Below are positions 400-58,992 of a stretch of DNA of 64,000 bases, in pieces; position 1 is the first letter of the stretch; the number at the start of each line of letters is the position of its first letter. The position numbers were made by a program, and so were the translations under genes. The notes below the pieces were generated by a model. The model made no database searches, was not told the DNA's origin, and worked only from the letters and a program-made list of their open reading frames with translations. The stretch comes from Sphagnum compactum (taxonomy: Eukaryota), in NCBI GenBank assembly GCA_965153455.1, contig OZ234494.1, forward strand, positions 11,036,001 through 11,100,000, given 5' to 3'.

Positions 400-2220
400 C
401 GGAGGTGCATTAGCTATGATGTGTGCAAGAAATGAGGAACTTCGAAAAAATTCAGCAGCCCATTGAAGAATCGTTATGGTTTGCACATGCTACAAGGTTA
501 TGGACATGCATTGTTGATAGTAAGAAGCAAGCATCGAGGGGACTAAAAAAGACCGTTGATGATGCGCGATAGTGGTCTGTGCACAAATGGTAAAAAATGA
601 ATCAAAATGAAAATGAAAACATCCATACGTCTCAATAGCAAGGGGAATGAAGTCATTGCCTAGTGTTCATTCAACATATAATCGTGTTTATTATTAAGCA
701 GCCATCATTGTTGCATGTGTTGTCATCGTTGATGTTTGCTGCACCATATCCGTGCAAATCGGATCAACAATGACAACATCCATCAAAGTCCAAAAGTCGT
801 GTTTGGTGATAAGGATATTCACTTATCGTTGGGTGTGGTGAGGAAAAGGTGGGAAACCTCCTTTTGAACATGTGCTCCACTTTCCAAAATAATAGCTGCG
901 ATAGTATCTTGAAGTGTGTTGCGAGTTATTATAAGTTCATTCTTGCAAGGGCACTGAAGCAAATGCGTACCTAGATCATCAATGGTATGACCACATTGAC
1001 ATTGTGAAAGATGGGCAAATGTAAATTGTGGCAAGCCAAAATAGGTATATAATGCTATAAGAAAGTGGGTTGAAGATAAACGAAATACAGGTGTGAAAGG
1101 ATGAATTAATAACCAAGCACTTGCCCTTGGACCTGCGCATGAGTGAAGACATGTTTGCATGATATTTGAAGGAACGTCTATTAGAAGTGAAGTAAATATT
1201 TGCTTGCGTAGGCAATCTGTTAAAGAAACCTACAATTGGGGATAAGATTGAACCACTAAGCTCTCAAAGGGTGGGACCTAAGAGCGGACAACTTGGGGTA
1301 ACATGGCTTGGACATCTCATAGTGTCATTTGAAACAAGGAAGTGTTAGTTTCAACATGTGTTACTACATCTAAAAGAATAGGGTGATCATCTCGTTGGAA
1401 ACAAATGATAAGTGTAAGAGTGATTAGTGCCCAACACCCCAAGAATGCACGGGCAACAGTCCAAACCATAAAATGGAAGCCGAACCCACTTGAAGAAGTA
1501 GGGAGAGTGGCTCGATGGTGAGCTAGGTGACCAATAGAATCACCAAAGATCCTGCATTAAATAACTTTTCTAACATAGCTATGGTATGAGTATCGAATTC
1601 AGTGTAATGTTGCAAAATACTTGGAAATGGAAACATTGTACAAAGCAAGTAACTTGGGCGCTAAGCATAGCACAACGAAAGCATCACAAAAATCGCCTAA
1701 GGATTTACAAGTGCAGGGAGATTAGCTATTATCCTAAGATCTTCATGAAAATCTTCAACCATAAACAACCCAATGAATAATGTGGATCTCACTGGTGCAC
1801 CCAAAATATGAAAACTTAAGTTGGGAGTAAGAAAGCTAGGAGGAAGTGATATAGAATGATCCAACCTTTGTGGAAACCAAGTTACACATTTCGTTAGCTG
1901 CACTAAAAGCCCTAATGCCGATAATTCCTACTGCAATTGTAAAAATGTAGGAACCACATTTGATGCAAGACTTATTATATGTGTATCATCTACTAAGGAA
2001 GGGAAAACACAAGTAGGGTGGGTTGTTGTTGTAGGGCAAAGAGTGTGAAGGTGAATCAAAGCAAACAACGTTCCTCCCAATGGGTCCCCTTGTCGTGTAC
2101 CTAACTTCGATGAAATGACTATGAAATCGCCATGTCGAGAAGCCTAAGAAAAATACAATAGAAATGGGCATGCGTAAAATTGTCGAACAAATGGGAAAAT
2201 TTGATTTAGATAACTAGACG
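400..2220 (-). mobile_element. Decayed non-LTR retrotransposon with RT and C-terminal restriction-like endonuclease (CRE/SLACS-like)
   Basis: Minus strand, in order: GTRQGDPLGGTLFAL (~2101-2057, RT QGDPL motif), FPSLVDDTHI (~2005-1976, YxDD-like), FHILGAPV, CQCGHTIDDLGTHLLQCPC zinc knuckle (ORF 819-1160), DILIT...LMDVVIVDP (RLE-like), and a terminal Q-x-x-S-I-T-L-x-x-x-Q helix near 500. Many stops and frameshifts; ends approximate. Confidence 0.8.
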
Positions 2221-2822
2221 AAAATTGTAATTACTAAAAAATGATTGACGATGATATTGAATTAAAAGCATTATGGACATCCACTTGTAACACCACTCAA
2301 TTTGGATACAAATCTAACATCACTAGAATGTTATGAACCATTGTTTCACACCCACAACGAGTTGCTACACCAAACTGATGAAGATTAAAATGATTTGTGA
2401 AATTATCTCTAAACTAAATAATCAAAGTGTAAGCAACTAAACAATAGGTCACCTCATTGATTATGATGGAACGCATACATACAAACTGCTTCTTCAACAA
2501 TAGGAGTCGAGACACAAAAAAAACAAAAATGATAGTAAAATAAAACATGACGTCAAGCAATGTGCCCACATACATAAAAAAAATAAAAATAAATCGAAAC
2601 CGCTCACAGAATCATCTAAGACAAAACACCTTTTAACACCTTATTATTAATAAATAATTATATTATCTATGCTTTACAATGGGCAAGGGTCATTCCCCAA
2701 ATGTGGCCTAACTGGATTAGACTTGATAGCCTTGTCCTAGGCCACTTATTTTTTCTGAAATGTCCCCAGTGTTCAGGTGTCTTACCCAATACTAAGTTCC
2801 AAAGCTGCAAGTCTGAGAATAA

Positions 2823-3147
2823 GGCCCACGAGGGTCCAGGGTCCAATTTCCTAGGAACTGATTTGGACTGATTTGAAGCAAATTGAATCCTTGAGTTGGA
2901 CTCTACCTGAGTCCCTAGCCTGATTCTTGGTTCTCCAAATCAGGAGCTCTCCTTTTAACACTGTTTTTTGGTCCGAACCAATTGATTTTCCCTCCAAAAC
3001 ATGTGCCATGTAGGTTTAGCCTCAATTTGCCACTTTTTGGTTTTTGACCTTCATCTAAAGGCCTTGGGACCGATTTAAAGCTTTCGACCAATAAGCTTGC
3101 TTGAATTGATTGGTCCATAGCCCTTGGACCCTCATCTAAAGTCGGCC
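2823..3147. mobile_element. PIF/Harbinger (Tourist-like) MITE
   Basis: TAA at 2820-2822 and at 3148-3150. Termini GGCC..GAGGGTCCAGGG / CCCTTGGACCCTC..GGCC form an imperfect inverted repeat, with the left arm shorter. Confidence 0.6.
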
Positions 3148-4066
3148 TAAGTTAATCTGGGGACTTTACACGCATCCTACTATAGACATGATACACCATC
3201 TAAGTTACAACGCTGCTTCCTGACGTGGGTTAATTCAGGAACTTTGCAGGCATACTACCAGAGAGATTTGTCATCTGACTCGCACCAAACAGTTTTAGTA
3301 AATTTACAGACTCTAAATTTATAATAGTTCCGAAATTATGATCTGGACACAGGAAAGCCGATCCGTCAGTAACACGTGGGAAAGGGCAAGGCCGAATGGC
3401 TCCACCTAACAAAGACCTTGAGAGACACATAAATTTTTAGATTGTGTTGATCTGTAACTATGTAGCTACTTGTGAACGCATTTCCCTGCCACACAGGAAT
3501 GCATTCACAAATGAGCTTGATGGGGCAAGGGGGGATATTTAGCGTCTTGCAACAGGAATCCCGTGTTCTGTATCTCAGCCTAGTTTTGGGAGCACCCGTA
3601 GCTATGCCTCCTTCCCTCCCTCCTTCCCCTATAGGGAAATGCTGAAAGTTTGTATGTTGTTGGAAGGGCAACCAAGCCTTCTAAGGCACATCATGTAATA
3701 TCGTAAATGATTTCTTATGGAGAGCTCACCGGGCTGCAAGGAAGCAGGCGATTGAAGTTCCGGGTACTACCTTGGGACACAATTGGAAAACGTGAACCAA
3801 ATTCGAAATTCAAATATATTTACATATATATACACATGTACATGCCAATCTTGCTCTTCCAAAGTCCATTTTTGAAACAATACAGATCGTAGCTAGCTGA
3901 CAGATTTCTTTGCAATCAAGTCTGCTTCTGCAAGTTGCAAACTTTTTCTCACGATCACTCTGCTGCTGAGAGTGTCACAGATGGTTATAACCCCATGTCT
4001 GGACTCAAAGGCATTTCAGACGTGTCACGAATGCAAGATATTATACTCGAAGTAGGCAGTTAATGT

Positions 4067-5557
4067 TTAACAGGAAAGCTCAGAAAGTGACTTGTATCGT
4101 CGAATTAGAAGCTTGGAATTCGAAGTTTTCTCCCTTGTAGGTGACTCGTGCATAATTCGGAAACTCCGACGTCCATGATGTGAACTGATGTTGGCTTGTT
4201 TTGACAATAAACCAGTTCTCACGTCAGTGGGGGCCAGATCTGCAGGATCAGAAGGATCTGAACCTGGAACCCGACTCAACGATAACTTGCTCTTCACCTT
4301 TTGTCTAGCATTGTCGAACTCGGGACGAGTATTGGGACCTCCGCCTAGCTTGCGTCTGATCACGAATGATCCCTTTCGTATCTCCCCTGGGTTCAGCTGC
4401 ACGTTGCATTGATTTGTTACAGATGAATCGGCTTCCCACATTTGATTCAATCCTCGCTTAGCATTGGATTTTGACGGTGTGAAATCATCACCATCCTGCT
4501 GCTGTCGATTTTGGTCTGAGAAAACCTTGGTACCAAGTTCATTCTTCACTGGCCACAAGTTGGTGTGTTTCGCGGCAGAGTTTGTTTGTTGATCTGGATT
4601 CGTAATGCAAGTGACTGGAAAACTAACAAATCTGCTGTCAAAACCACTCCTGAAGGTAGAAGAAACATTGCATCTTAGTACTGATGAACTACAGTCCGAT
4701 GGAGCCCGAATTCTAAGATCCTCTTTGATCCTTGAGGCGCCAGCTTTTGTTCCCTGTACATCCATGTCTATCACGCATTGATTGCATCTCCAGGAGAGGT
4801 CTCGCAGATTCGAATTTGTTCCAGCTGTCTGCCCTCTAGGATTAGGAGCCATACAGTACCTGTCGAAAAGCCAAAACAAAGGTGAATTGATCATAAGCCT
4901 CGGAGGTTGATTATATTTTGCTGAATCATGTGCAACAACGGATCTTGGTGAACATAAGAACCGTGTCGACTTCAATGCACTTAAAGAGTGTGATCAGACC
5001 AGCAGGAGAAATAGTGCTCCAGTGGCTAATCGTAATCAGGCATGTATGATGAATATAGTTTCTAATTGTTGCTGGACCGACGCAGTCGACGGTCTATGCT
5101 TCAATTCATCTACGCGAGTTTGCATTCTAGCAAGCAGATTTGGAACCCGGCTCTAGTGAATCCAAATCTACTGCTCTAGGCCGATGATCCGATGCAAATA
5201 GGAAGAAAAATAATCTTGCAGCACTGTTATCAAGACTACGAGAATTCTAGTGAACCGGCTGTGCCAATTAGTGAATAGAACTTAGAGTGCTACTCACAGA
5301 TGCTGAGCACGAGATTGGCAAACGGAACAGAACTGCAGAAGATCCACAAATCCCACATCGCCACACATAATGCACTCGACGCCAGACGGGTGATCAGCAG
5401 GTTGATAATTGTGTTCGTCTCCCCGTTTGTCTTCCGAACAGATTTCTACCGCTCTAAGAAGACGGCCATCCGATGAGGACACTGCGGTAAGCGACTTCTC
5501 CGAAATATTTCTGATCGAACTTCTATTGCCATTCTCTCCATACTCAGATTCCACCAT
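4067..5557 (-). CDS. Plant-specific PHD-type zinc-finger protein, 2 exons: 5557-5298 and 4859-4067
   Basis: Donor CT|GTGAGT at 5298/5297 and acceptor CAG|G at 4860/4859 join in phase. The result is ECIMCGDVGFVDLLQFCSVCQSRAQHLYC...WRCNQC, with the family-typical C-terminal RRYKxLxE motif (IRRYKSLSELSC*). Confidence 0.88.
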
Positions 5558-21485: not shown

Positions 21486-24282
21486 CAATGCAGTCCAGCG
21501 GCTAGCTGATAGTCGCAGCTACCCGCAGCTGCAGATCGGCTGCGGCTGCAGCCAAGATTTTTAGCAGCGGCCGGGTGCAGGCGGCTATGCACCTTAGCGG
21601 GCGACTGTGGCTACGGCCGTTATTCAAAGTGTACGTCCTGATTGGTATCAATTTTCAAAGCGTTATGCATATTTATTATAAAGAAGCCAAATTAACATCA
21701 TTAAAACAAGATATTCTGCCGTGGCAACCTTAGAAGTTAGTACTAGAGCTCAGACTCCAGAATTAGTGCTACTTTGCAGTGCATTTTGTAGATTAGCGTT
21801 CGGTGCTCACTGCTTCCTAGTGTAAGTTTTTGACTTTGAGATCATCATTCTCAAATTCTGCGTCTTGACTGGCACAACACATCATGCAGTGCTTCAAGTC
21901 GCTTGATGATGCTAAGAAGAAGATATCCGTTGGTTTGACCAGCAAGAACCCGCAGTATGCGGTGATACCCTTCACGTTGAAGAATTGGCCATCAACCAAC
22001 AAGCTATGGGATCGCATGGGCCAAGTGGTCGTGAAGGCCAGTGGCGAGTGGGTGCGCCTCGATGTGGAGGTGGATGGCAAGGGGTGGACCAACACGGTGT
22101 ACGTGTGCGCCTGCATCAAGCCCACTTGCCTCAGTATCTATGTATACAACTTGCGGGACGGCATGTCGTCAATGAGTGGCCACACCTGCTCGCGTGCAGC
22201 TGCTACAGCTTCCTCTTCAAACAGCTTAGCCGTTTGGGCGAGTAAGCGCGACATGCCAACCGACTCTGCCAAGGCCAACATGACCAATGTCCTCGTCAAC
22301 ATGTGTTCGTGGGACATTCGCCCATACTCGTCTGCGGAGGGCGCAGGCTTCGAGAACGTCATCCAGACCGCCCTGGACATTGGCTTTGCAAGCAAGACGC
22401 CACTGATCGCTGAGAACTTGCTGTAGTCCCGATAGATCGTCAAGCGCAATACGATGGTCCGATTTGACAAAGGTGTCTTGAAGCTACAAGTCATCCTGCG
22501 CAAGCACTTCATTGACAATGGGTGCGTTGCATTCTCCACTGACACTTGGACGGACAACGCCACACAGACGGCGTACAGTGCTAACACCCTCCACATGATC
22601 GACGACAATTGGGTCATGCACGCCGACGTTGTGTCTTGTGATGAGTTCAGCGAAGGCACGAGCCACACCGCGCCAACGATTCATCGCGACTTTGTTAACA
22701 GCATCCGCCCGTTCATATCCTGGAAGGAGGACGAGGTGATGGTTCAGGCGGCGGACTGACAGGTGGTGGTCAAGTCAGATGCGACATCGAACAATAACGG
22801 AGCGGAAGGAATGTCGTCACAGTTCGAGCTAGACCTCTGCTATTGCCATCGCCTGTCGACATGTATCAGCCATGTGCTGCGGAAGCATACTCGCGTGGTG
22901 GGCGGCATCAAGCAGCCAGCGGCCTACCTCTTCTACGAACAGTCCGAATTGGTCTTTGACACGATTAATGATGCGAAGGTGCTGGTCACGTACATGAAGA
23001 ATACGCTCCTGAACAAGAAGTTGAATAACAAGATGAAGCAGGACGTGGGGATGCGCTTTGACGGTCTCCTCATCATGTTGCAGTCTGTGGCCGCCGAATT
23101 GGCTACGTCCATCGAGCTGCTGAAAAAGAGGAAACAGGAGGAGTGCGCCAAGTGCATCATTGAGCCACTGCTCATTGAACTTATTCGACTGCTGCACTAC
23201 TTCAAGCTGGCCAACAAGTCCTTAGAGCCGTTTTTCGCGCCCACCATTCAAGATCGTCGGCATGTGGTTTACCAAACTGATGGCCCACCTCCAACCGCGA
23301 GTTGAACCCGTCACCGTTGACGGTGCAGATGGCGAGAAGGTGACCATTGCAGCTGACAATGACAAGATTGGCCCCATCAAGGCGCTCCTGCTCGGTCAGC
23401 TCAAGGAGAAATACTTCCTCAAGCCGCTCCACGCTGCTGTTGCCTACGTGGATCCGCTGCAAAAGAACCGCCTGCTCGATTGCGGCTTCACTCAAGAGCT
23501 GATCGACCACGGCCTGCTCTACCTCAAGGACATTATGCACAAGGTTGGCCCACCCAAGCAGATGGTGGTGTCCAAGTTCGGTGACAAGCATCCACTACCG
23601 GCAAAGAAGAACCGCGCCAAGAAGCTGCGCACCATCTTTGTCCACGTCGGCCCTAGTCGAGATGACAGCGACGACGATTCTTCGGAGAGCAACGGTGGCC
23701 ACGAGCAAGGCGAGGCGGCTTAGCTCGAGGCCCTTATCGAGCACGAGTTGGCCTCGTATCGCTTGCTCAAGGCTGACAAGAGCGACAAGAAAGTTCTGCT
23801 TCAGGAAGCTACACGTAAAAGAGCCCGACCAGATGGCGAAGTCAAGCACGACGTTGGCCTATTGCCATGGTGGAAAATCAAGTCCGCCAATTTTCCCAGT
23901 CTGGCTCGCGCCGCCTGTGCCATACTCTGCATTCCGGCTTCAAGTTCGATGCCGAAATGTACATTCTCGTCCGTCGGCAATACGCGGACCAACAAGCGCA
24001 ACGCGTTGAAGCCCGACATGCTGAACGCCCTCCTCTACCTCCGCTCCAATCAGGACCTAGACCGTTCATAGTAGGCTGACATTTTTTTATAACATGAACG
24101 GATATGATGAAAACAATGATGTGGGGAAGAAGGCTACAGCCGAAACGTTGTGGTGGTGGGCGGCTGCGGTTGCAACTGGATATCGCTACGTAAATCGGGC
24201 GGCTGCAGCTACGGCCGAGAATTTAGCTGGAATAAAACGGCCAGGCTACGGCCGGATCCGGCAGGATGTGTGGACAGCACTG
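21486..24282 (+). mobile_element. Near full-length GC-rich hAT DNA transposon (Hermes/hobo-like)
   Basis: Imperfect 12-bp TIRs CAATGCAGTCCA (21486-21497) and TGGACAGCACTG (24271-24282), 10/12 match. GCGGCTGCAGC/GGCTACGGCCG subterminal repeats at both ends. Internal transposase. No clean 8-bp TSD. Confidence 0.85.
21884..24071 (+). pseudogene. hAT transposase, intronless, ~730 codons, disrupted by 4 stops and 1 frameshift
   Basis: BED-like finger (CACIKPTC..GMSSMSGHTC), Hermes-like DNA-binding domain (MCSWDIRPYSSAEGAGF), STDTWTD, KSDATSNN, CYCH, and LPWWK...FPSLARAACAILCIPASS dimerisation domain. Stops at TAG 22424, TAG 22433, TGA 22757 and TAG 23721; frameshift near 23250. Confidence 0.9.
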
Positions 24283-45200: not shown

Positions 45201-46749
45201 ATTATTTTTTTGTTTAATTTCTTTTTGTTTGTACACAGGTGAACATTTTAGATTAAACACCTTCATTTGATAAGTTTTTTTGTTATAATAGTATAGAATG
45301 TCATAAAATAAACTTTTGTGAAAAAAATTGACAAATTAATCTTTAAAAGTTTTGCCATAGTTTGCAAATGTATAAATTACGTAGTAAAGAAATGGTTGTG
45401 CCATAATATTATACATAGAAAATAAATATTTATGCAAACAAAAACATAAATATTTATAGTTATATAATAAAAATATATAATTTTGATCCTATATTTGTTT
45501 GTATTTCAAATAAACACCTTAAAGCACATGTAAAACATGATACCATGAATTTAAGCATAGGTGGATCATGAGATGTAAAAAGGGTAAGGTTCCTACTCAT
45601 ATTCTTAAATATTGAAAAAGATTTATGCATTATTCCTATGCTTACTGCTTAAATGTGAAGGATCTTACATCTACAAGTAGGCATAAATTTCCTTCCACAA
45701 ATTAAAAAGTAGTTATAAAAACCGTTTTTCCTACACATAACAATCTACATAAATTGAAGTGATAGGTTTTTAGGGGAAAAAACAATAAAGAGCCTATGTT
45801 AAATAAAACTATAAATCACAAGCAAGTTTCGAATCGAAACCATGTTTGTTTATTTACATAGTTATGAAAATCTATGTTCTTGTTTGTAAAAACATTTTCT
45901 CACATTTTTATTGTTTATATATATAACTAATGTGCCACACCATTCTCCTACCATGGACTTCACATAAATTATATTAAAACTTTTCAAAACTAAAATTTGA
46001 ATTTTTTCACAATTCTATTTTATAAAACTTTACATTCATACAACAACAACTTATTTCTATTAAGTGAAGGTGTTTCTAAAGGTCACACACATTCACTTAT
46101 ATACTAACCAAAAGGAAATTAAAGAAGAAATTGTCATGTGAAAATCAATGCACATTAATGTGCGAAAAACTTTTCATATGACTTTTACATGTTTAAGTCA
46201 AGCACATTAATTAAAACTATGACCAAATCATAATTAAATTATGAAATTTAACTAACAAATAAATCATCAAACTTAAACATTAAATAATTACATAAATAAT
46301 AGTCTAATTACATCAAGTTATAAGACCATATGATTTTGGTAATGTTGTCGTATGAAAACTTTATATTGCATAAATCTTTGTTATTTTGCTTTTGTAATAA
46401 AAAAATTGTGATACCATATTTCTTTGGTACGATTCATTTTTATAATAAAATTAAAAAATTCATTTACACATCATAATAAACATTGCCACAACACAAGCAA
46501 AATAATGGGCAAGGCTTTATGTTCATGATAGATATCACCTGGTACCTTCTATTGGGTAAAGCTCATGAGAGAGGGACCTTCCAAAATGCAAGGCCAGCTA
46601 CCACCTCATCCTAGGCCCTTTAGTTTGAGAAGAACCCAACCTTGGGGGCTGTACACTAGGACGGAAATTCACACAGAAATAAGAAAAGAGGGCAGAAATT
46701 TCCTCTGACTCATTTAAGAGGAATTTTTGAATTCAGATGGGATAAAGTT

Positions 46750-47270
46750 TAAACGATCCTATGTCCAGACGAAAGAAAAGGGGGAATTACACTTGGGCGA
46801 TAGAGAAAGGCAGGCGGGGGGGAGTGCCCTAGTCAGGGAAGAAGGCGGGGAAAGAAACGGCTGACTTAATGAGATGAGTAAAGGAAAGCCTTGTTGTGAA
46901 GCAGGGTTTAGTAAGCTCTCTGTGTTTGTTATGATTGAGTGGCAGCGCGGCGTCCGAGACGTTTTGTGAAATTTTACGCTGCTCACGCTGCTAGCCTACG
47001 ACTTGCACTGCTCTTTATTTGTGGCTTCTCCTACGGCCGCCTCTCAAAGCTTCCTGAGTACGCCATCTCCACTTCGGACTTTACTCATGTCTGGATCCAT
47101 CTCTTTCGAGTGCGTTCCGAATGCCCCGCAGTTTCTTCTGTTTGGTACGATCTTCCATTCTTGTTCTTGTTATTTTTTATTCTTTATCTGTGACCAAGGA
47201 AGGAAGGAAGGAATGTGGACGCACATTGTGTTGTGCTTCTTTTCTGCCTCGTGAAGCTGTGTAAGTGTGT
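46750..47270 (+). promoter_or_regulatory. Probable promoter and first non-coding exon of the Agenet gene
   Basis: GC/CpG rises after AT-rich intergenic DNA. Telo-box-like AGGGTTTAG at ~46903, pyrimidine-rich leader, and donor-like GTAAGT at 47261. Confidence 0.45.
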
Positions 47271-48241
47271 TTGTCTTGCCTTCATGTGTGAGGGATTACG
47301 CAAATTTTAAGGAGATTTTTCGACGGTGGACTTTTGTCTAGTTTCGGGCTTTCTTTTGGAGTCCTGTGCTCTCTAGATGCTTTTTTTCGCAAGGCGGTTT
47401 GCTTTCTAGTTTAGGGATCCTGGCTGTGTGGAGACGGCAATGTAGGCGTTCTTCTCTAGGAAGCTTTGGAGGCTGATTTTTTTGGTTTAGGTAAGGCTAA
47501 GTTCATGCTTGTTTACTCTCAGGGGTTTTGTTTGAAGATAGTTTGAGGTCCATTCCCCTCCTATCGCTTTTTCTCTCTCCTTCTGTCGTCGTCTCGATTT
47601 ACATGCAGTATAGCTGAATGATAAATATTTGGATCATGTTGAGTTTACGGTAGCGCAGTCCTCGATTTTTTAATTCGACTATGTATTCTCTTGGATTACT
47701 GTTCTGTCCAAGTCCAGTGCGGAGCTTTTCCGGTTGGCTAACTAGCTAGCTAGATACACAATTCTTTACAAGTTGTTTGCCTCCGACAAGCAATGCCAAA
47801 TTTGCTGGAAGAGGGTCTCTCCTGTGGAAGCTCTGTTTGGAATATGTCATTTGATTTCCATCTTTTGCATTCTCGCTTCAATGCAGGCTTCCTGTCGGTG
47901 CTAGCAGCCTGAGAGATGTGCAACCTGGAATAGCAGCAGCCAGTGAGGTAGCATCCAACTGGTGATTGATTATCTGGAATTTTAGGAGTGTTTTTGTTCA
48001 CAAGAACCACATTGTCTTTCGTCTTGGTTCTGAGAGGACTGCACTATATGACATGTGCTTGTCTTGCATGTTCTGTTTGGAATCTGCTCTGAATCCTAGT
48101 CTATTCCTTGCCTTGTAATGGTTGCTCATGAGAGCAAATGGTTGGTTTCTGTTGAATTGTTTGTACTGAAATAATCAGCATCTGTACTGTGATTTGTCAT
48201 ATATATGTGGCGTATTTTGCAGTGCTTCCTCGTTCTACAAC

Positions 48242-51200
48242 ATGGAGCATGTCTTTGAGGTAGGCAAGGAGGTTGAGGCAAGGTTCAATGAAATTGGCTA
48301 TCGTGGAGCTTGGTTTCGCTGCAAGGTATATTCTATGAGCTCAAGCATCTGTTTTTTCGACCATCGTCTGGAGAGTTTGTCTCTACTTCACCAATGTGCC
48401 ATGCTAAGTCATTTCAAGTCATCATTTGTGTGTAATATGTGACAGATATTAGAATCCAGAAGATCAGGCGAGGAGTGGGAGTACCTTCTGTACTACCTGG
48501 ACTTCACTGAAGAGAGTAAGTATATGGCATGCAGCTTATCGGCCTTCCTTTGCATTTGCAGGTTTTGTAATCAAGGAAAGGGATGTGAACCCAATGTATT
48601 TAATTGTAGTGAAATGCAAGGAGGCACCTACAGTATAGGGCGGGTGCTCAGTCATTCTAGCTCCAATAAGCATCAAAGTTTTAGTGTATACAGCACAATG
48701 GTGTTCTTTGGTGTCATGCTGTTTGGGGAGTAGTAGTCATGTTGTTGGTGGAGAAGACTCTCTGAGAACATTTTTATGTGTGCAGATTGTACTTGGACGT
48801 GTGCCTGTGAACCAGATCCAGTTTCTGGACTTGCTAATAAGAAGAATATCAGATGGATGATTCGCCCTCCAATGCCTCTGACACTGGACGAGATTGAGTA
48901 CCAGCAATGGAAAGAGCCTGGGCTTGTGGTTGTTTTCAACAAGGATTACAGGGTCGGTGACATGGTTGATTGGTGGCATGATTCCTGTTTCTGGACTGGT
49001 CGGATTCTGAGCATGAATGCAGCTAACAACAAAGTTCAGGTGAGAGAACTCACAACTGCTACTTGAGATGATGTTTTTTATAATGGCCTGGAATTCTGTG
49101 ATCTCTATTCTTGAATCAATGCTGAATACCACCCATTTTGATGAAGCACACCTATCATTATCATGAACAGCTGCAAGTGGAGTTACATATCTTGTAAACC
49201 AGGTGGGAGGTGAATCAAATGGACATTGTCTCTAATGGTTTGGAGTGCTGTGTGGAGCTGTGCAGATAACCTTGCTAAATCCACCACAAGGGGAAGGAAA
49301 GAGATATTGGGCACATCCAAAGGATCTTCGCCCAGCCTTAGAGTGGACTATGGAATCTGACTGGATAGCAGTGAAGCCTCTTTTGGCAGAGGATGTAATG
49401 TGGTCAATCCTGATGCCCCTTGCATTCTTGGTCCATGATTCTTTGTACTTTTATTTTCTAGTGTCTTCTGCAAAATTCATTCCATAGAGGTACTTGTTGT
49501 GTGCTGACACATTTGAGTTGGACTTGTTTGTTTGTCAGGTTCACAGACGTAGATCAGTAAACCCTCGGTGTGGTCAGCCACATGTGCAGTTGTTGGATAA
49601 ATCCTCAGGAGCTTCACTAATTGTTGCAGTGTCAGCTGCACATTTTCAAGGTACTTGCACTTTAAGATCTATGCATTGGCAGGCATTAAGGGTATCTTTG
49701 CATTGGTCACTATTTTGTTCTGGCTTTCTCATATTTTGTGCTGGGTCATCTGGCCACAATCCTGAAGAAATCACATATTCTTACTATGATTCGATCTGTG
49801 TCTAGATTCTACGATAGAGGATGTAAGCCTGCGAAGTCAGAGGTGTCATCAACCAGCCCAAGGACCGACCACTGAAGGTTCTGTTATAGGGGAAGCTAGC
49901 AGGGAGAGATGTAGCTGGAATGGACCCACTGGAGAACTGAACATAGCTGTTGAGCCAGCAAAACAGTCCATGCATGCTATACAAACAAGTGCAAAAAGGA
50001 GGTACAGAGTCAAGAAAAAAAGAGAGACCACAGGAGAACTGAACATATCTGTTGCGTCAGTAACAAAATCCATGGATGCTATACAGCCAAGGGCAAAAAG
50101 GAGGTACAGAGTCAAGGAAAGAAGGGAGACCACAGGAATAACTACTGGGAATGCCACAAAGGAAAAAATTCAGAGAAAAAGGAAACGAGTGGTTTGCAAG
50201 GAGGATAACACAATTTGTGGAAAGAAACAATTTTGCAGGACATGGACCCCTAATCTCAGAGAGCAGAATGGAAAGTCTTCTGAGGACCCTGAGATAAGGC
50301 AAAATTTGGAGCAAGCTAATGAGCTCATTGCATTAAACACAAAAATGTTCAGTGCCCCATCAACCCCACAACACGAGGAGGTACGGGACACAGGGAAAAT
50401 CTGGGAAAGCGATGGGCATCCTCAATCAGGAGACACCAGCATGGTATCCGAAGAGGAGAAGATGATTCCAGAAAAAAGTGGAGAAGCAGATCCTGTTCAG
50501 AACGTTCTAGTTGAGGTACAGCTATTAGCTCTGGTTGTATTTGATGTTCTCTTTAATTCTCTGTGCAGAACAGTGATGGTAAAGTTTACCAGATGAAATG
50601 TGTTGTCTGATGATTACTTTATTCTGCTCATGTGGCAGTCCAGTGAAGCTCGTGACGAGAAGGTTGCACTGGAAGGGAAAGAGAGCAATTTTACAGTTTC
50701 ATCAGGCTCACCAAAGGAGCAAGATTGTCAACACCAAGAGGGACAGATGTGCAATGAGGGGGTTGATGTTCTGGATCTGTGCAAGGATGTGAAAGCAGAA
50801 GAGAGCAGCATAAGTACGGAGGTGGGCGAATTGGTCTAATTGATAACTTCTCAGTACAGTTACAGCCTTGCCCACCTTGTGAAAACTGTGTTCTCAGGGA
50901 ATTCAAATCTTTGCACTGCAGGATGGAAAGGAAAGACCAGTACAAGTCATGGTTGTGTCTGAAGGAGAGCAAGCACAAGTTGCTGATGAGAAGACCAATT
51001 TGACCAGTAAGTGCCATCATGAAGCTTAACTGTGATTAGAAGTGGAATATACAGTTTTAAGCATCACATTACGCATGTCAGTTTACTGGTCCAAAGCACA
51101 TACTATGTGTTGGTTGTGAGGAGATTTTTAAGTAGTCCTGGACTCTGATCTTGATCACTATTATTTATTGTAAGAGAACCGTGAGCCTTGTTATGTTATT

Positions 51201-54200
51201 GCAGTAGCACGCAGTGAAGGACTAGCGGAAGCAGGTGCAGCTGCAATCAGAAAGTTCTCTTTGATCGACTTCCCTGAGGAGCTTTATGACTTGGAGCGAC
51301 TGTCAGTGCGAGTCCAATCCATGAGAAAAATTTTGAGACGAAAATTTGGGGGAAAACAGAAGGACCTTATATGGAGAGTAGAAGGGGTTACAGGGAAGTA
51401 CAAAAGCACTGGTGCAAAGTCTTGTGAAGCTGTTGGAGTTGTTCGAGATCAAGAGAGCTCTAAAAATTTACCTCCTGTGCCGCTCGTTCATGCAGTCCAA
51501 TCAAGTGATCAAGAGCATACTGCAGACTTGGCTTTTGTAAAACCAGCATCTGGAATTGAGTGTCATATGATGAACTCCAACAAGATCATCCAAGGACAGT
51601 CAAAGGAAGAGTCCATTCAAGAAGCAGAATTGGAGTTGTTGGAACCGCTATCCTGTCAACCCAATGCCTCTGAAGCCACTGCACAAAAGCAGGAGAATTC
51701 TGATACAGGGGGGCAGCTGAAGCAGCAGAGGCAAACTGAAATTGATATTACTGACTTGGATATGGGTGCTGATGCATTTAGAGATAGTAAGAGCCTTCTG
51801 TCTTGGAATTGCACAATATGATTAAGAAGTTGGATTGATAACCTTAATGGTGAACTGAACCTGTATGTCATAGATTCTATTTGTTTTGTACCACCAGCAG
51901 CTTAATTGCATTTTTGTGAACAGAGATGAAGTCAACTGAAAATGAATCGTGACATTCTCATGTACTTCTTGCATACATGGACAGGATTTGGGGAACTCAA
52001 AGCCAAATTTGTAGAACCTGTGGCCAGTGCCGGAGAGCAAAGCAAGGGAGACAGTTTGCAATGTCCTGGCATCAAATTGCAGCCAAATGGTGTTGGGTCT
52101 GTGAAAGCATACTCACAGGGAGAAGCTGTGTCAATAGGCAATTATGCCTCAATAGAAGCTGGTTTTGCATATGAGAGTGCAGCTGGACATCCACCTTTCC
52201 CTGTAGCAGGAACAGATGCCTCTTCAGGACCAGTCACAAACTTGGATCCCTCCACCAGGTGTGTCTGGTTTTTCTATCTATGCTGCTTGTTCTTCGATTC
52301 CTCATCAATGTCTGACTTCCTGCTCTACACCCAACTGGTGTAGACAAACGGAGGGGTTTAGGGTATGACAAGCTGTTGTCTGCAGGGAACAACAGAAGCA
52401 TGTTAGATCTCTGAAAATAGGGTGAAGTGACAAAAGCTCATGTTTGAACTGGGGTGAGGCCAGCCCTAGGAGTACTGTGAATCTTTTCTAGTATCTGATG
52501 ATTTGTGATGTGTGAGCCTTAGCTTGAAGGTCTGCAAAATGGTTGGATAACATACGAGCATTTATATTGTACATAAGAAATGTGTATAAGAGGAATTTTA
52601 TGTTATGGGATAGCAGTCTAACAGGATATACCCTGTGCAAGAAGGAAAATGTCTATACTGCAAAGGGAATTAATCTAGTATATATGATGTTATATAGGAA
52701 TTGGAACATGTTCAGAACATAGAATTGGATACTAGCAGCACTTCTCCAGGAGCTAATTTGCCTGCAAATTAATAAGTGGAACTGTAGTGTTCCTTTGATG
52801 TTTTCTGTTTCTGTATTCCCTTGTCCATCTATACTAAGATCTTGGCTCCAGACATTGAAAAATCCTTTTCCTTCACCTACTTGTTGAATTGCACCAGCAC
52901 CAGGTATGAAGATAGACAAGCAATATTCAGGGCTGTAATTGAAATTAAGTGTAGCTCTGTTGGTCAAGAAAAAATTAAGCTTAACTATAGCCCACATGGG
53001 GTTTAATGTTTGCCTGATTATTATGTCTGCAGGAGAAAGGATCCAAAGCACAAAGAGACTATGGGTCTGCATCCTACTGCAGCACAATTTGGTCTTGATG
53101 CAGCAAACTCAAGTATTGATGTCACCATAGTCATAGAACCTTCACCAATTGCACAGGGAACTCACACTGGTCCAGAGGGAAGTTCACATCTGAGATGCAA
53201 TGAAACAGCTGAGAGACAGACATCTGTTTGGACTGTAGAAGAAGAATTAGTCTCCGTGGCCAATAGGACGGGTAAGCCTCAACCAGATGAATCTGGTTTG
53301 ATATTTGCTTGTTCAAATAGTAAGAGCGTTGCTGATGCCACAAAACCTGTAGTATTGCACACGTCTAGTGAATGTGATGCAGTGCCGAAAGATGTCAGTG
53401 CCTCCAATGCAACTGGACTGGAAACTCCTCCCTCCTTAGACCTTATCAAGATACAAACTTTTCTTGATTCCATCAGAATGACAGGCTTTGCAACCATGAA
53501 AGAAACAGAGGCTGCATACCAGGCACGCAGAACCTTGCTCCAAACTATATTTTGCACCATTGATGACAGTGCAGAGGGTATGGACAGCATTGCTGGTGCT
53601 GATATGCTTGTGTTTTTTTCATCATCAGTATCATATATTGATAGTGACACCAATGGTAGTAAGGTTATCCTGCGGTCTCGTTCTGGGCAAAGGACAAGCA
53701 AGTATGAGTCAATTCCTATTGGCCTCTATAAGACTCTAGAAGAGGCAGAGGCAGCATGCAGAGCCATCTCACACTGCAGAAGGGAACTGAAGAAGTTTGC
53801 TTCCCTCAGTGGATTGCTCCAGGTATTGTTTTGAATGTCCATTTTCTGTGTATACTCATGTTGGAGCACGTCTGCTAATCCACCTCTATCCAAAATCATC
53901 CTGACCTGGTTTCTGGGCTTTTAATGTTGCAGGTGGTCAATCTGCCACAGATTGCAGGGACTGCATCAATTCTGAAGCCGGAGGCTGTTCCACAAGTCTG
54001 GAGACCTTGTACTTCAGATTCTACACTCCCTCCTACAATAAACCATGGACAGTGCAGCATCCAAGCTAAAGCTCAGCCTTCTAGAGCAATAATCACACAA
54101 GCCAGCGTGCACTCTCCAGGAAATGCAAAGGCCATCATGGGAAACAGGCCTTATCTTACTACATCAACAACTGTCCAAACCAGCAGGCAAACTGAAGCTT

Positions 54201-56043
54201 TTGATGTGGTACTACCAGATACACATGCCAGCCTCCAAGCTAAAGCTTCTCCTCAAGTACAAGTCTGCAAGCAGGCCAGCACACATGAGATTGCTCCTTG
54301 TACAACTCCATTAAATATACAGGTCTGTGTGCCAGGTGGCACCCCTTTTGTTCCAGGCAATGTGCGATTTGAACCTCCAGCAACTCTAGGAGCTGTAATT
54401 ACCATAAACAATGACAGAGAGTGTGGCACACTACCTCTGCCTCAGCCAGTCCACAACCAGACAACATTTCTTCCTGCCAACATTGGCAACACCTATGTCT
54501 GTTGTAAGGTGAGGTGTCTCCAAAAGTTGGCCTCTGTTTGTCATTCATTCTTCATTTTTTCCTCTTCTTTCTAGACAAAGCCAATTCTCTATGCCAGCAG
54601 GTTTCTTGTCTGAAGGAAATATTCACTGATCCTGTTTTCTACTGTTCTACTGAGTGGGGAGGTTGATAGTAAGACTGCTCAGGTTTAATATTGGCAAGTA
54701 ATTCATGGTACACTTTGAGAGATGATAAGGTGTTCCATTGTGCAGTTTATGATTTCTGGTAATTGATCACAATATTTCCTCTTGTGAGTTGAGATCAGGG
54801 GTCATTATTACCACCTTGTTGGGAATTCTTGACTAAGTACTAATACTGTCTTGTGCACCTATTTTGACTAGGCCTTGCAGCTTATGGAATCAGTAGGTAG
54901 GTCAGAGCTATTTCCAGTTTCTGAGGATTTATCTAGCATAGCCTTTGGAGTTGGCTTTCTGAAAGTTTGATATTTAGTTTGTAAGTACATTGTTTCACAG
55001 CCTCCTCATCTGTTGTCTCTTGTGAATGTGTGTAATCTTGTGTCTCCTATCTGTGGTTTGTGAGAAATCTGTTTTGGCCTGTTTGGATGCTTCTTGACAT
55101 TCCAAATTACATGCTACAGACTGCAGTTTGGCCTCTAGACCAAATACTTGTTAGGAGACTGCAGTGCAAGCTCTGCAATTGTACAATGCACACTGCGTGC
55201 GCAATTCGCTCTGGTCAGCTGAGGCTGATGCAATTCACTCGGAATGGTAAGTTTTTAATCCTCTATACCTTCCATTTATTTTTATTTTTTGCCAGTAAGG
55301 TTGTGGTTCAAGGATATGGATTGTGTGTGAAGATTATATATTGAAGATTATATCTCTTTATCTTGTGTTCCTCATTATTCTGCTGATAGAGGAGGACTGA
55401 TATTTCATACTGGATCTTGTTTCTTCATACTATTTGTGAACTGTCTTGTTCACATGCTCCTCTTCATCCTCCTGTTTTCCCAAGAGTGGCAGCTTACCGT
55501 CAATTGCACATGTATTGCAGGTCAAGTACTAGAGCATGTTCTGTACAGGTGCTTGTGCAATTATGACTCAGAAGTATTGTTCAAATTACTTTCTGTCATT
55601 TGGCACATCACAACAGTCATTGCAAAACAACAGAACAGGAACAGGGTGAGGTCTGCAGCAGGTGTGTGGTCTGGAAGTGTATCATCAGTACAGGCAATGC
55701 CAGAGCTGGGCTACCTGATGGAGACACTCTCAAGGTTGGAGCTCAGTTTGAAGGGTGCATCAAGAAATCTTTTCAAGCTCCACAGGATGGTGTCTGCAAT
55801 GATCAATTACACCAAAGTGGCTCCTGATACAGTTGACTACCAACGGTTTGTTGACTGGATAGCATATCATACAAAACTGGCAGCAGGTATGTGTAACTTT
55901 TTATGATAGGTTTTCTGTGGATAGCAAGACCTGTGCTAAATGCTTGGTAACAAAACACCTCTGCATGTGGATTTTTGATGTAGTATCCCATAGACTACTC
56001 CATTAGTTCAGTGATTGCAGATGCTGTAAGAGCATTCCGGTGA
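48242..56043 (+). CDS. Multi-exon Agenet/Tudor-like domain protein with extended C-terminus (AP2-like motifs, OBERON/VIN3-like PHD)
   Basis: In-phase GT-AG exons, approximately: 48242-48325, 48446-48515, 48786-49039, 49266-49394, 49539-49650, 49806-50516, 50639-50821, 50922-51006, 51206-51786, 51985-52258, 53033-53822, 53933-54508, 55120-55246, 55521-55886. The last exon is uncertain (56021-56043 or 56098 onward). Motifs: FEVGKEVEAR..GYRGAWFRCKI, YRVGDMVDWWHDSCFWTG, PPQGEG..KDLRPALEW. Confidence 0.8.
49928..50136 (+). repeat. In-frame 102-bp (34-aa) exonic tandem duplication
   Basis: GGAGAACTGAACATA at 49931 and 50033; TGELNI...MxAIQ..AKRRYRVK..RET occurs twice. Confidence 0.9.
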
Positions 56044-57419
56044 TGTTTGGTGGTGTGAGCAAACTATGACAAGACTTATGTAGTTGTGGGTTGTCAGGTG
56101 CAGCAAGGGCTTGAGTGTACAGTAGAGGACTCTACCATCTGTGACTCACATGAGAAGACTAGTGTAACAAGCAGTGATACTGAGTCTAGGTCATTCTTTT
56201 GAAGGAAAGAAGTGCTAGCACCAATTTGTGTGTTGATGGGATCCTAGGAATACGAATATGCTAGACCTAATGCCTTTTAGAATTGAAAGAACTACCCAAA
56301 AATCTGCAAGATTTTGTCTACTTGCTCATTGTCCTGATATGGGAGTCTGTACAGTAATGACAACTCAGCATACATGCTGATTTAGAACATAGCAAAATTG
56401 AACTGCTGTGGGGAATGATTTGGTGTGTAGGGTGTGTGTTGAACCCATGCATGGTTGTTTCTTGTCAAAATCATGCACTTGTCTCCATTTTGGTCTTGAC
56501 CCAGGTTAAAATTAAATGGAATTGACCCACACAAGCTGGTTGCAGCTTGGATGAAGATGATGTGACTTGTGTGCAAGCCAACATCATGACTGAGTCTTTC
56601 CTGCTGCTATTGGAAATTCTGGACCCAGATTTTGCTCTATGGTTTGCCTGGAATTGTGTGCAGATCATAGTAAACTTATATGCACACACTGTTGGAAGCT
56701 GTTGAAATCAGTGGGTACACATTGAAGCTCATTACTGCAATTTGTGATGAAGTGGATGCTTGCACACATTGTGAATAACTCTTGTAAGGTTATGATCACA
56801 CTCATTCTCATGTTACCTTCTGAATTGATGTTGAGATGTCTCAATTCTTACAAAGGTGAATAGCCTAGTTGATTCCAACAAGATAGTGTCTGACAGTGTA
56901 TTGGTGCATCTGAGTTAGTGCTTTCACAACTCTGTGTCCACACGAGTCTTATGTAAACACACTATCATGAAGGCACCAACTAACATGCACAGGCCAGTTT
57001 TGATGGATGTGGTAATGTGTGGTTTTATCTGGTAAGTATCTCTTGGGGACTAGTATATGCAGGGTGATGATATGGAAGGAATAGAACCCCAAGGACAGGA
57101 AAAAAAGCTCTGGAAAGCTCTGAAGTTATGTAGTGGCAATTTGAAATTTCAAAATTCAAAATTCTATAATTAAGTAGTAATGCTACTAAAGGGTGTTGTG
57201 GAGAAATAGTTGGAAAGGGAAAATGTAAGTTAATGGGTATATTTGCTTTATTCTAATTTTAAATGATTCATCAGAGCTGTTTTTGGTAGGATAACTTTAC
57301 ATTCCATAAGTTGTAGACTGAACAATTTCAAATTGAAATTTGTTGAGCCCATTATCAGTTGAAGAGGCATAGAAAGGTGTTTTTGAATTGGTGTTTAGGG
57401 GTTTTCAATATTGTGGTCA

Positions 57420-57670
57420 TAGGAAGATTCTGAACACATTTTTCACCAATTTGAATCCCATTTGTTTTTAATTCTGAATTCATTCAATTGAATCATAATT
57501 GAATTATTAAATTTGAATTAGAATTAAATTCAAATTCTATTCAATGTCTTTGAATTCAATTTAGCAATTGGGATTCAATCCAATTAAATCTAATGTCACT
57601 TTAAAATCAATTCAAGTTGTATTGCAATGTAATTTATATCTCAATTTCACATAAGAATCAATTAATTTCT
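57420..57670. repeat. AT-rich degenerate repeat (TTGAATTCAA / AATTCAAATT)
   Basis: Recurrent short palindromic motifs between the two convergent genes. Confidence 0.5.
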
Positions 57671-58992
57671 CATCTCAAAACAATCTTGTTCCACAAAAAA
57701 TAGTAATAATAATAAATCTCATATTTTAAGTCTTGGTGCAAATAAAGAGGATTAATTGCATGTTACACGTTGCATTTACCTTTGGTTGAAATTCATTAAT
57801 ATCAACATTAATTCAACATGTCACATCATTGATATATATGTGTTGTATATTTCTCCCTTCAACTTTGGTCTCTTTTAAAATTAAATGAAGATTTGACTTG
57901 TTTTTCTAAAAAAATTGAATCTTTAAATCATTATGATTGTTGTTAGGCCAAGGTCCTAAAAGGATATCCCAACATGGGATGTTGACCTAGCAAACATTCG
58001 CAAATATAAACATCCCTGCTCAAAATTCAAATTAGTGTAATGTTTGATTCAGGAATGACTTAAGCTTGCTCAACAAATAAAACACACCCAAACAACACCA
58101 AGGATGATGAAAGATAAAGAACAATAAAAAGACAAGAATGTTGACAAGGGATGACAAAATATCAACAAGCAATAATAGGGATGTTGAAAAGGTAAGCTAG
58201 AAACACTAGGAAAACTAGGTTGGACATGAATTTTTTATTCTTTCAGTTATATAAGCGGCACCAAGATGATGAGGGTTGAGGCCGTTGGATATAATTTTGA
58301 AGGACACCACCAAGAAATACATAAGAAACATTGGAAAGGCCCCCAAAAAAATCTTTTGATGCAATGAGGGTGATGGATGCTAGAAATATATATATATATA
58401 TGATCATTGATTACCAATGTCTAGCAATTAATTAATTTTAAAATAATTTACTTAAGTAACTTTTAAATATTTTGACCTTAATGTCAATTGAGCATCATTG
58501 GTAGTCTTAAGCAGCACGAAGCACAAGTTTTTATGAATGTAAAGTTTGTAACGATTTAAATCATTTTATGGAATGTTCTAATTGTAAAATTAAAATTAAA
58601 ATTTTATGATCATTTAGCTTCACTTTGAAAGGGGAAGTTTTCCAAGGGAATGTGAGAAAGAGAGAAAGATAATGGTAAAGGAGGTAGAGGTTTTGCCTTT
58701 ACATTTGAAAAATAATGGGAAAGGTAAGGATAAGCTAATGTGCATTTTCATACCCATGTAGGTGGATAGGGGGAGGGAGTTGAGGTAGTGAGGCTTAGAA
58801 GATGCATTTCTAGGTTGCACAAGATAATGTCATGAATGGTTTGAAGCCATATACTTTGGAAAATCCAGAGAAGAGTTTGAAAGGATTTGAGCGTATTCCA
58901 ATTTTTGGGAAAGCAAATCTGTCCATGCTCAAGATTTTGTTATGACTAAACTTTTAAAATGTCATGAGATGATTTTGAGTCTGTAAAGGATG

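Follow-up and report, generated by a model that had tools for sequence, protein, structure and literature searches.

The 64,000-nucleotide (nt) stretch of Sphagnum compactum analysed here (contig OZ234494.1, positions 11,036,001 to 11,100,000; referred to as the window, in whose own numbering all positions are given) is plant nuclear DNA. An original prediction, made from its sequence alone, had proposed that a gene for an Agenet protein in the window continues into a long extension with further reader-type modules. It appears fairly probable that this is a single nuclear Sphagnum gene of 17 exons, whose modular product of 1452 amino acids (aa) would be nuclear and associated with chromatin. 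In close relatives, all exons are joined in one mRNA with one open reading frame (ORF).

Exon structure and transcript evidence

The exon model was built from the window sequence and then refined with L001, a complementary DNA (cDNA)-like contig of a relative. On the plus strand it comprises two exons of the 5′ untranslated region (UTR) and 15 coding exons, the latter adding up to 4359 nt, a multiple of three, with a lone terminal stop. L001 is an intronless contig of 5191 nt with a lone ORF of 1464 aa (403–4797), which spans the protein from the Agenet start (MSASSLDNMEHVF...) to ...KLAAGAARA, the C-terminus of the relatives' protein. Its alignment to the window consists of 17 colinear blocks of 93–99% identity, corresponding to the two UTR exons and the 15 coding exons, plus two internal-repeat cross-hits. 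A scan of metagenome contigs with P0002, a protein cluster of the Joint Genome Institute (JGI) with 873 aa and 36 members, revealed five loci, and every exon indel in the comparison with five related loci was a multiple of three. In the run alignments, all eight listed indels within coding exons measured 3 or 6 nt and three of four indels behind the stop codon measured 1 nt.

Four sequencing runs were aligned to positions 47500–57500; the RNA runs that contain parts of the window are mostly moss metatranscriptomes. Two of the runs, X2 (moss metatranscriptome contigs) and X1 (only guessed to be RNA), represent close relatives that are about 95% identical to the window. Their contigs provided 15 listed exon joints, apart from two further ones, which represent 14 introns. 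Eleven of the 15 were classified as GT..AG by the alignment tool, and the other four (50817>50920, 51782>51984, 51785>51984 and 52252>53030) contain a few diverged exon-end letters in the relatives. Six of the joints (51006/51205, 51786/51985, 52258/53033, 53822/53933, 54508/55120 and 55246/55521) occur jointly on one X2 contig of 2810 nt (record 8). Coding exon 9 (51205–51786), which holds a helix motif (YDLERLSVRVQSMRKILRRKFGGKQKDLIW, 51285–51380) and whose upstream joint 51006>51205 was found in X2, X1 and three reads of the run X22, therefore lies on a single spliced molecule with the downstream exons.

This result bears directly on the point at which the reading frame breaks. The plus-strand frame is open from 51174 to a stop at 51819–51821, which would be reached 33 nt past the donor of exon 9 if this exon were left unspliced. 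According to the original prediction, a donor at 51786 and an acceptor at 51985 bypass this stop in phase, and this was confirmed by the sequence, by the RNA of the relatives and by L001. All seven splice sites named there are canonical and in frame, and read on the plus strand of the window as donor A/GTAAGA after 51786, acceptor CAG before 51985, donor CAG/GTGTGT after 52258, acceptor CAG before 53033, donor AAG/GTGAGG after 54508, acceptor CAG before 55120 and donor CAG/GTATGT after 55886. The three junctions singled out for inspection, 51786/51985, 52258/53033 and 54508/55120, are all carried by RNA contigs of the relatives. In-phase exons up to about 55886 had been expected and are present, but the coding sequence runs on across the last intron (55887–56097) through five final codons to a TGA at 56112–56114. 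As judged from the RNA joints and L001, the Agenet protein is indeed extended, with about 715 further residues beyond the ORF break.

The species of the window itself is represented by X22, a poly(A) run carrying its label, in which 23 of 110 aligned reads were at least 99% identical. All of these reads are oriented alike, and they fall on exons upstream as well as downstream of the ORF break. The read-level joints listed for this run are 51006/51205 (three reads) and 50513/50637 (one read); the joint 51786/51985 is not among them, which is a gap in the support from this species. Alternatively, the break could mark the boundary between two adjacent genes, of which the first would be a short Agenet gene that ends near 51.8 kb, with read-through or chimeric transcripts or assembly artefacts as its only link to the second, downstream one. 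Such an arrangement would agree with the stop just beyond the exon-9 donor and with the angiosperm homologues, which end at about this place; moreover, P0002 begins at a methionine within the helix motif, and contig evidence cannot reveal transcript starts. P0002, however, is derived from a contig of only 3369 nt and is thus most simply a partial transcript. The precise, in-phase GT..AG joint occurs in two independent runs as well as in L001, whose ORF is uninterrupted, the depth of X2 and X1 is alike on both sides of the break, and both parts are joined in two independent genome annotations. We therefore regard two separate genes as highly improbable and proceed with one continuous gene.

At its 5′ end, the gene starts with a UTR exon at 47152–47491, which corresponds to the first L001 block (92.8% identity) and is covered by X2; its 5′ boundary is a minimum. 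The second UTR exon (47885–47947) is likewise an L001 block and is connected to the start-codon exon (48223–48325) by the joint 47945>48221 in X2 and X1. The relatives begin translation eight codons upstream, in the second UTR exon (MSASSLDN...). The window contains GTG in place of their start codon and an in-frame TAG four codons further upstream; as the upstream ATG is missing, translation starts at the first ATG, at position 48242. At the other end, the last exon (56098–56504; L001 block 56095–56504) contains the five codons, the TGA and the 3′ UTR, and its 3′ boundary is again a minimum. Within the gene, coding exon 7 (50639–50821) is defined by RNA joints and L001. Coding exon 8 (50922–51006) rests on the L001 block 50917–51006, the X1 joint 50817>50920 and a frame check. 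It has two in-frame acceptors 24 nt apart, 50898 and 50922, of which the relatives use the latter; the former would add 8 aa.

The gene is already contained in the public annotations of S. fallax and S. magellanicum, the species with the closest named proteins, as a 'hypothetical protein' in which Agenet alone is recognised, and the gene model itself is hence not new. The annotated orthologues comprise 1345 aa (S. fallax, P0003) and 1399 aa (S. magellanicum, P0004), with both ends present. Compared to L001, P0003 is without 118 residues of exon 11 and P0004 skips exon 7. As both public models differ from L001 in this way, the exon map given here would improve the annotation.

Contigs of X1 also run unspliced through the last intron (55865–56374), where the protein would end with ...GMCNFL at a stop at 55904–55906, and extend into intron 12 (54509–54935). 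These stretches represent either intron retention or DNA in the run.

The Agenet pair, the basic linker and the helix motif

The first Agenet repeat begins on the start-codon exon, to which a Pfam Agenet match maps, continues through coding exon 2 (48446–48515; joints 48323>48444 and 48515>48786, L001 block) and ends on coding exon 3 (48786–49039). The second repeat starts on exon 3 and extends onto coding exon 4 (49266–49394), where the pair ends near aa 179; both exons are backed by RNA joints, L001 and a BLASTP alignment to a protein from Papaver. PF05641 (Agenet) matches the orthologues in two stretches, with 42.3 bits for P0004 and 43.7 bits for P0003 at a cut-off of 27. The start-codon exon of the window alone reaches 23.7 bits (E = 6.8e-5) and stays below the cut-off because the domain is split by introns. 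A Pfam search with 11 single-exon translations revealed only a sub-threshold Agenet match, with the remaining rows (E = 0.014–0.3) representing noise. Residues 1–179 are 97–99% identical to the relatives. The Papaver protein P0019, itself an Agenet protein with 49.3 bits, is 39% identical over 168 aa covering both repeats (E = 4e-30). Residues 1–179 thus form two Agenet (Tudor-like) repeats in tandem, with homology to the short Agenet proteins of angiosperms, and the tandem Tudor-like readers of the original prediction are indeed present.

A search with residues 1–620 of P0004 among proteins shorter than 768 aa yielded 25 matches, namely four Papaver Agenet proteins and 21 short fragments, which are unnamed or hypothetical and 55–100% identical. 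No full-length bryophyte relative was found in this search, which was limited to the 8000 top word-sharing candidates and is uninformative on other bryophytes. The four Papaver proteins (P0019–P0022, 358–390 aa) are Agenet-only proteins with the same N-terminal arrangement as the Sphagnum protein, followed by a long low-complexity linker that both share. Presumably, the 'plant Tudor-like' proteins of Arabidopsis, with about 380 aa, also belong with these short Agenet-only proteins.

The Papaver proteins stop 0–38 residues past a helix motif, LxxLxxRVxxxxxxL (LQxLVxRVRxLxxLL), whereas the Sphagnum protein continues for about 850 residues and includes two further conserved modules. In local alignments, the Papaver motif falls in the same register as LERLSVRVQSMRKIL of Sphagnum in four of four proteins. 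The alignment scores were reached by 103–1873 of 2000 shuffles and are thus not significant by themselves, and BLASTP leaves the motif unaligned between Papaver and Sphagnum proteins. The premise of the original prediction, that angiosperm members of this subfamily end just past the motif, is therefore plausible but not proven: the Papaver proteins do end there, but the correspondence of the motif itself is not significant.

Between the Agenet pair and the motif lies a linker that begins on coding exon 5 (49539–49650; RNA joints, L001) and continues on coding exon 6 (49806–50515), where it is presumably disordered. According to Tandem Repeats Finder, exon 6 contains a tandem duplication of 102 nt (49926–50137, 2.1 copies, 86% matches), which in translation encodes two basic 34-aa units with KRRYRVK(K/E)(K/R)RE and is followed by an RKRKR stretch at 50174–50188. 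The basic repeats and RKRKR resemble nuclear-localisation motifs in sequence and may act as such signals.

The Sphagnum extension and its conserved modules

The extension begins with coding exon 10 (51985–52258), which is an L001 block and is bounded by the joints 51782/51785>51984 and 52252>53030. A HMMER search with P0002 against 1.84 billion representative proteins revealed three matches. Two of them are exon-sized, Sphagnum-like fragments (89–94% identity), and the third, P0007, is an unnamed singleton of 339 aa from a Logan assembly that is 33% identical over residues 381–504. A profile search with alignment A1 returned three matches, all from Sphagnum, among proteins of 483–2000 aa, a size range that excluded relatives of 230–480 aa such as P0007 (P0005 widened the alignment). 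Within the scope of these searches, the extension occurs in Sphagnum alone, plus one distant relative of its middle module.

Three parts of the protein are more constrained than the rest. Identity to L001 at the aa level is 97.2% in the Agenet pair, 97.0% in the middle module (aa 960–1091) and 97.9% in the C-terminal 195 aa, with rates of non-synonymous substitution (dN) across loci of 0.002–0.012, 0.010–0.017 and 0.009–0.016, respectively. The other stretches, which comprise the linkers and the motif stretch, are 88–94% identical with dN of 0.030–0.065. The overall ratio of dN to the synonymous rate (dN/dS) is about 0.6–0.8 in both halves of the gene, based on small substitution counts. For the extension it amounts to 0.60–0.72 (18–21.5 synonymous and 41.5–42 non-synonymous changes), which indicates weak overall constraint.

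The middle module is encoded by the 3′ half of coding exon 11 (53033–53822) and comprises 131 aa (53430–53822, aa 961–1091). An AlphaFold2 model based on an alignment of three sequences shows three helices, three strands and a long helix, with a predicted local distance difference test (pLDDT) of 74.6 and a predicted template modelling score of 0.74. The module is 96–98% identical among Sphagnum sequences and 33% identical to P0007 with 40 invariant alignment columns, and its net charge is zero.

An AP2-like or other DNA-binding fold had originally been proposed for this part of the protein. In an AP2 domain, three strands are followed by a helix, and the module model ends in the same element order, with three antiparallel strands (residues 67–73, 76–82 and 94–100) and a long helix (103–127). 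Furthermore, IGLYKTLEEAEAACRAI resembles by eye the AP2 element 'LGxFxTxEEAAxAY', including an EEA-rich helix start. Against a relationship, no Pfam row, including AP2 (PF00847), appeared at E ≤ 10 for exon 11 or P0007, and none for AP2 in the full orthologues, although the HMMER filters may hide very weak matches. Neither the module profile nor P0002 had a match among Protein Data Bank (PDB) sequences at E ≤ 10, a Foldseek search with the model gave no match at E ≤ 0.001 and no convincing fold match, and the ESM Atlas provided nothing usable for the module. Unlike an AP2/ERF domain, the module has three extra N-terminal helices packed into it, and its zero net charge would be unusual in a DNA-binding domain. 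It is consequently very unlikely that the module is a divergent DNA-binding domain of the AP2/ERF type (or the related integrase type). The proposed DNA-binding fold was not borne out, and the module is treated here as an orphan helix–sheet–helix domain.

Downstream of the orphan domain, coding exon 12 (53933–54508; RNA joints, L001) encodes a Q/T/S/P-rich linker that ends with a Cys-Cys pair (54500–54505). Coding exon 13 (55120–55246; joints 54506>55118 and 55245>55520) contains a PHD-like core, C-x2-C-x4-H-x2-C, at 55165–55200, to which a weak match to PF07227 (PHD_Oberon) maps, and coding exon 14 (55521–55886), which is 98% identical to the Sphagnum proteins, starts with Y-x-C-x-C (55544–55558). 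Four helices past this last Cys pair appear in the secondary structure of a low-confidence model, a single-sequence AlphaFold2 prediction of the C-terminal 197 aa. Taken together, these elements form the pattern CC-x16-C-x2-C-x4-H-x2-C-x23-Y-x-C-x-C, which extends from the last part of exon 12 through exon 13 into the beginning of exon 14, with eight potential ligands in PHD order (CC at 1281–82, C1299-x2-C1302-x4-H1307-x2-C1310 and Y1334-x-C1336-x-C1338). Its central part, C-x2-C-x4-H-x2-C, is canonical, and the PHD signature is also matched by the aromatic residue that stands two positions ahead of the last pair. The C-terminus carries a net charge of +12.

PF07227 was the top-ranked Pfam match in three of four Sphagnum queries that contain the region, and its register was constant in all three, covering profile positions 56–110/112 of 130 and leaving 1–55 unmatched. 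In the ESM Atlas, PF07227 clusters were the sole family among the matches listed for the last 230 aa of P0004, the best with a score of 0.86 and 178 of 256 shared features. Two different methods, a profile hidden Markov model (HMM) and language-model features, hence converge on a single family out of the 24,736 in Pfam, which favours a likeness to PHD_Oberon.

Several observations weigh against this assignment. The PF07227 scores of 12.8 bits (P0003), 10.6 bits (P0002) and 14.3 bits (C-terminal 197 aa of P0004), with E-values of 0.11, 0.52 and 0.037, lie below the cut-off of 28.8, and full-length P0004 yielded no PF07227 row. The first and last ligand pairs, CC (x0) and CxC (x1), have non-canonical spacing. 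The Atlas score is below the tool's line of 0.9 and counts as a lead only, with a calibration that did not cover parts of proteins, and the AlphaFold2 model reached a pLDDT of 37. No C-x2-C pair is present in the 90 residues upstream of the PHD-like part, and one of four scattered upstream Cys is an Arg in P0002. Finally, no relative of the C-terminus outside Sphagnum was found among the 1.84 billion representatives.

Some of these points would also fit a C-terminus unrelated to PHD, namely a separate type of helical domain with Cys residues at the end of the same single gene, in which a short Cys/His pattern and an amphipathic helix produce the signals. Every PF07227 score is sub-threshold, the ligand pairs are irregularly spaced, neither OBERON nor VEL proteins were among the matches of P0002 in the 1.84 billion representatives, and there was no match to a PDB sequence at E ≤ 10. 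In addition, one third of shuffled proteins obtain ten concordant top matches in the Atlas tool. What such a domain would leave to coincidence is the agreement of both methods on one family, the identical HMM register in three of three queries, and the exact occurrence of C-x2-C-x4-H-x2-C and aromatic-x-C, which is the PHD core signature in the excerpted account of the VEL and OBE families (PMC9640981). We therefore consider an unrelated domain unlikely. That the C-terminus is truly related to PHD_Oberon, in degenerate form, is in our view likely.

According to the same excerpts, VEL and OBERON proteins share a 'PHD superdomain' composed of a zinc finger with four invariant Cys at the N-terminal side, a PHD and a four-helix bundle (PDB 7QCE), which is reported in the VEL and OBE families only (PMC9640981). 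In OBE1-4 and in the VEL proteins VIN3, VRN5 and VEL1, the core signature is directly followed by four helices, as in the low-confidence helix model of the Sphagnum C-terminus. The OBE version is reported to bind methylated H3, and the VEL version, which is positively charged, to bind polymers of negative charge (PMC9640981); the Sphagnum C-terminus shares the positive net charge of the VEL version. It differs from both in being without the N-terminal C4 zinc finger and in its first and last ligand pairs, CC and CxC instead of CxxC. Moreover, Pfam detected no Oberon coiled coil, FNIII or VEL domain in the Sphagnum protein, and the fusion of the PHD-like part to an Agenet pair is absent from the excerpted account of OBE and VEL (PMC9640981). 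Of the predicted OBERON-type PHD, the top-ranked PF07227 match, the concordant Atlas result and the Cys/His order thus stand, whereas the scores remain below the cut-off and the zinc finger is missing. In superdomain terms, the C-terminus would correspond to a degenerate PHD and the four-helix-bundle part.

Proposed function, wider meaning and other features of the window

Plant Agenet proteins are readers of histone marks, and their partner domains decide on recruitment. By analogy with characterised plant Agenet proteins, the Agenet pair of the Sphagnum protein may read a methylated histone tail. A second contact, to a histone tail or to nucleic acid, could come from the basic C-terminus with its PHD-like part and helices. 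Its net charge of +12 suggests that it may contact chromatin or nucleic acid, in the same way as the VEL superdomain contacts negatively charged polymers. The middle module, with its uncharacterised fold, probably provides a surface for protein interaction or nucleic acid and could thereby add a third contact. As a whole, the protein might act as a multivalent chromatin reader or adaptor, and it would have arisen within the Sphagnum lineage when an ancestral gene for a short Agenet protein was extended or fused.

Agenet domains are reported to co-occur with ENT, BAH, PHD and DUF724 (PMC4634149), so that a reader combining Agenet and PHD would be of a known kind. The characterised readers described there resemble the Sphagnum protein in that a tandem Agenet is combined with a second chromatin-type module. 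The Sphagnum protein differs from them, as no ENT, BAH, DUF724 or canonical PHD model matched, with no PF05266 (DUF724) row at E ≤ 10 in P0003 or P0004. Its partner modules are instead the orphan domain and the degenerate OBERON-like PHD, both found in Sphagnum only. The original prediction had described the architecture as unfamiliar among characterised proteins, and in line with this our literature search found no publication describing an Agenet pair together with the orphan module and an OBERON-like PHD without zinc finger.

A more far-reaching interpretation, which we put forward tentatively and hold to be somewhat improbable, is that the protein represents a third, unrecognised family with an OBERON/VEL-type superdomain, without the zinc-finger lobe and fused to the tandem Agenet pair and a new alpha3-beta3-alpha domain. 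If true, this would contradict the limit of the superdomain to VEL and OBE as stated in the excerpted account (PMC9640981). The protein would then be a bivalent or trivalent chromatin reader or adaptor without a counterpart in other land plants, and a clear example of shuffled reader domains in an early-diverging moss. If the PHD relationship alone is real, the range of the superdomain would widen beyond two families, and a natural 'minimal' version consisting of PHD and helices without a zinc finger would become available for structure–function work. The architecture is, moreover, lineage-specific to Sphagnum, a keystone peat-forming genus.

Outside the exons, several short features of the window were observed. 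In intron 10 (774 nt), positions 52856–52891 match contigs of the run X21 with unrelated flanks and are probably a small repeat. X21 was rejected as evidence for the gene, as it touches short repeats only, despite a word share of 0.32. Just beyond the 3′ end of L001, about 31 nt at 56567–56597 recur in a large number of distinct transcripts or contigs from each of the four runs. Their flanks are only about 70% alike, as would be expected of a dispersed repeat family. A depth peak is found at 56518–56851 (119 in X2 versus about 15–20 nearby), with 73 X22 reads that have loose ends at 56566. A search of 46000–58000 with Rfam returned no family, and no tRNA was found in the window. The G+C content of the window is 0.25–0.45, apart from a 2-kb stretch at 22001–24000 in which it reaches 0.55.

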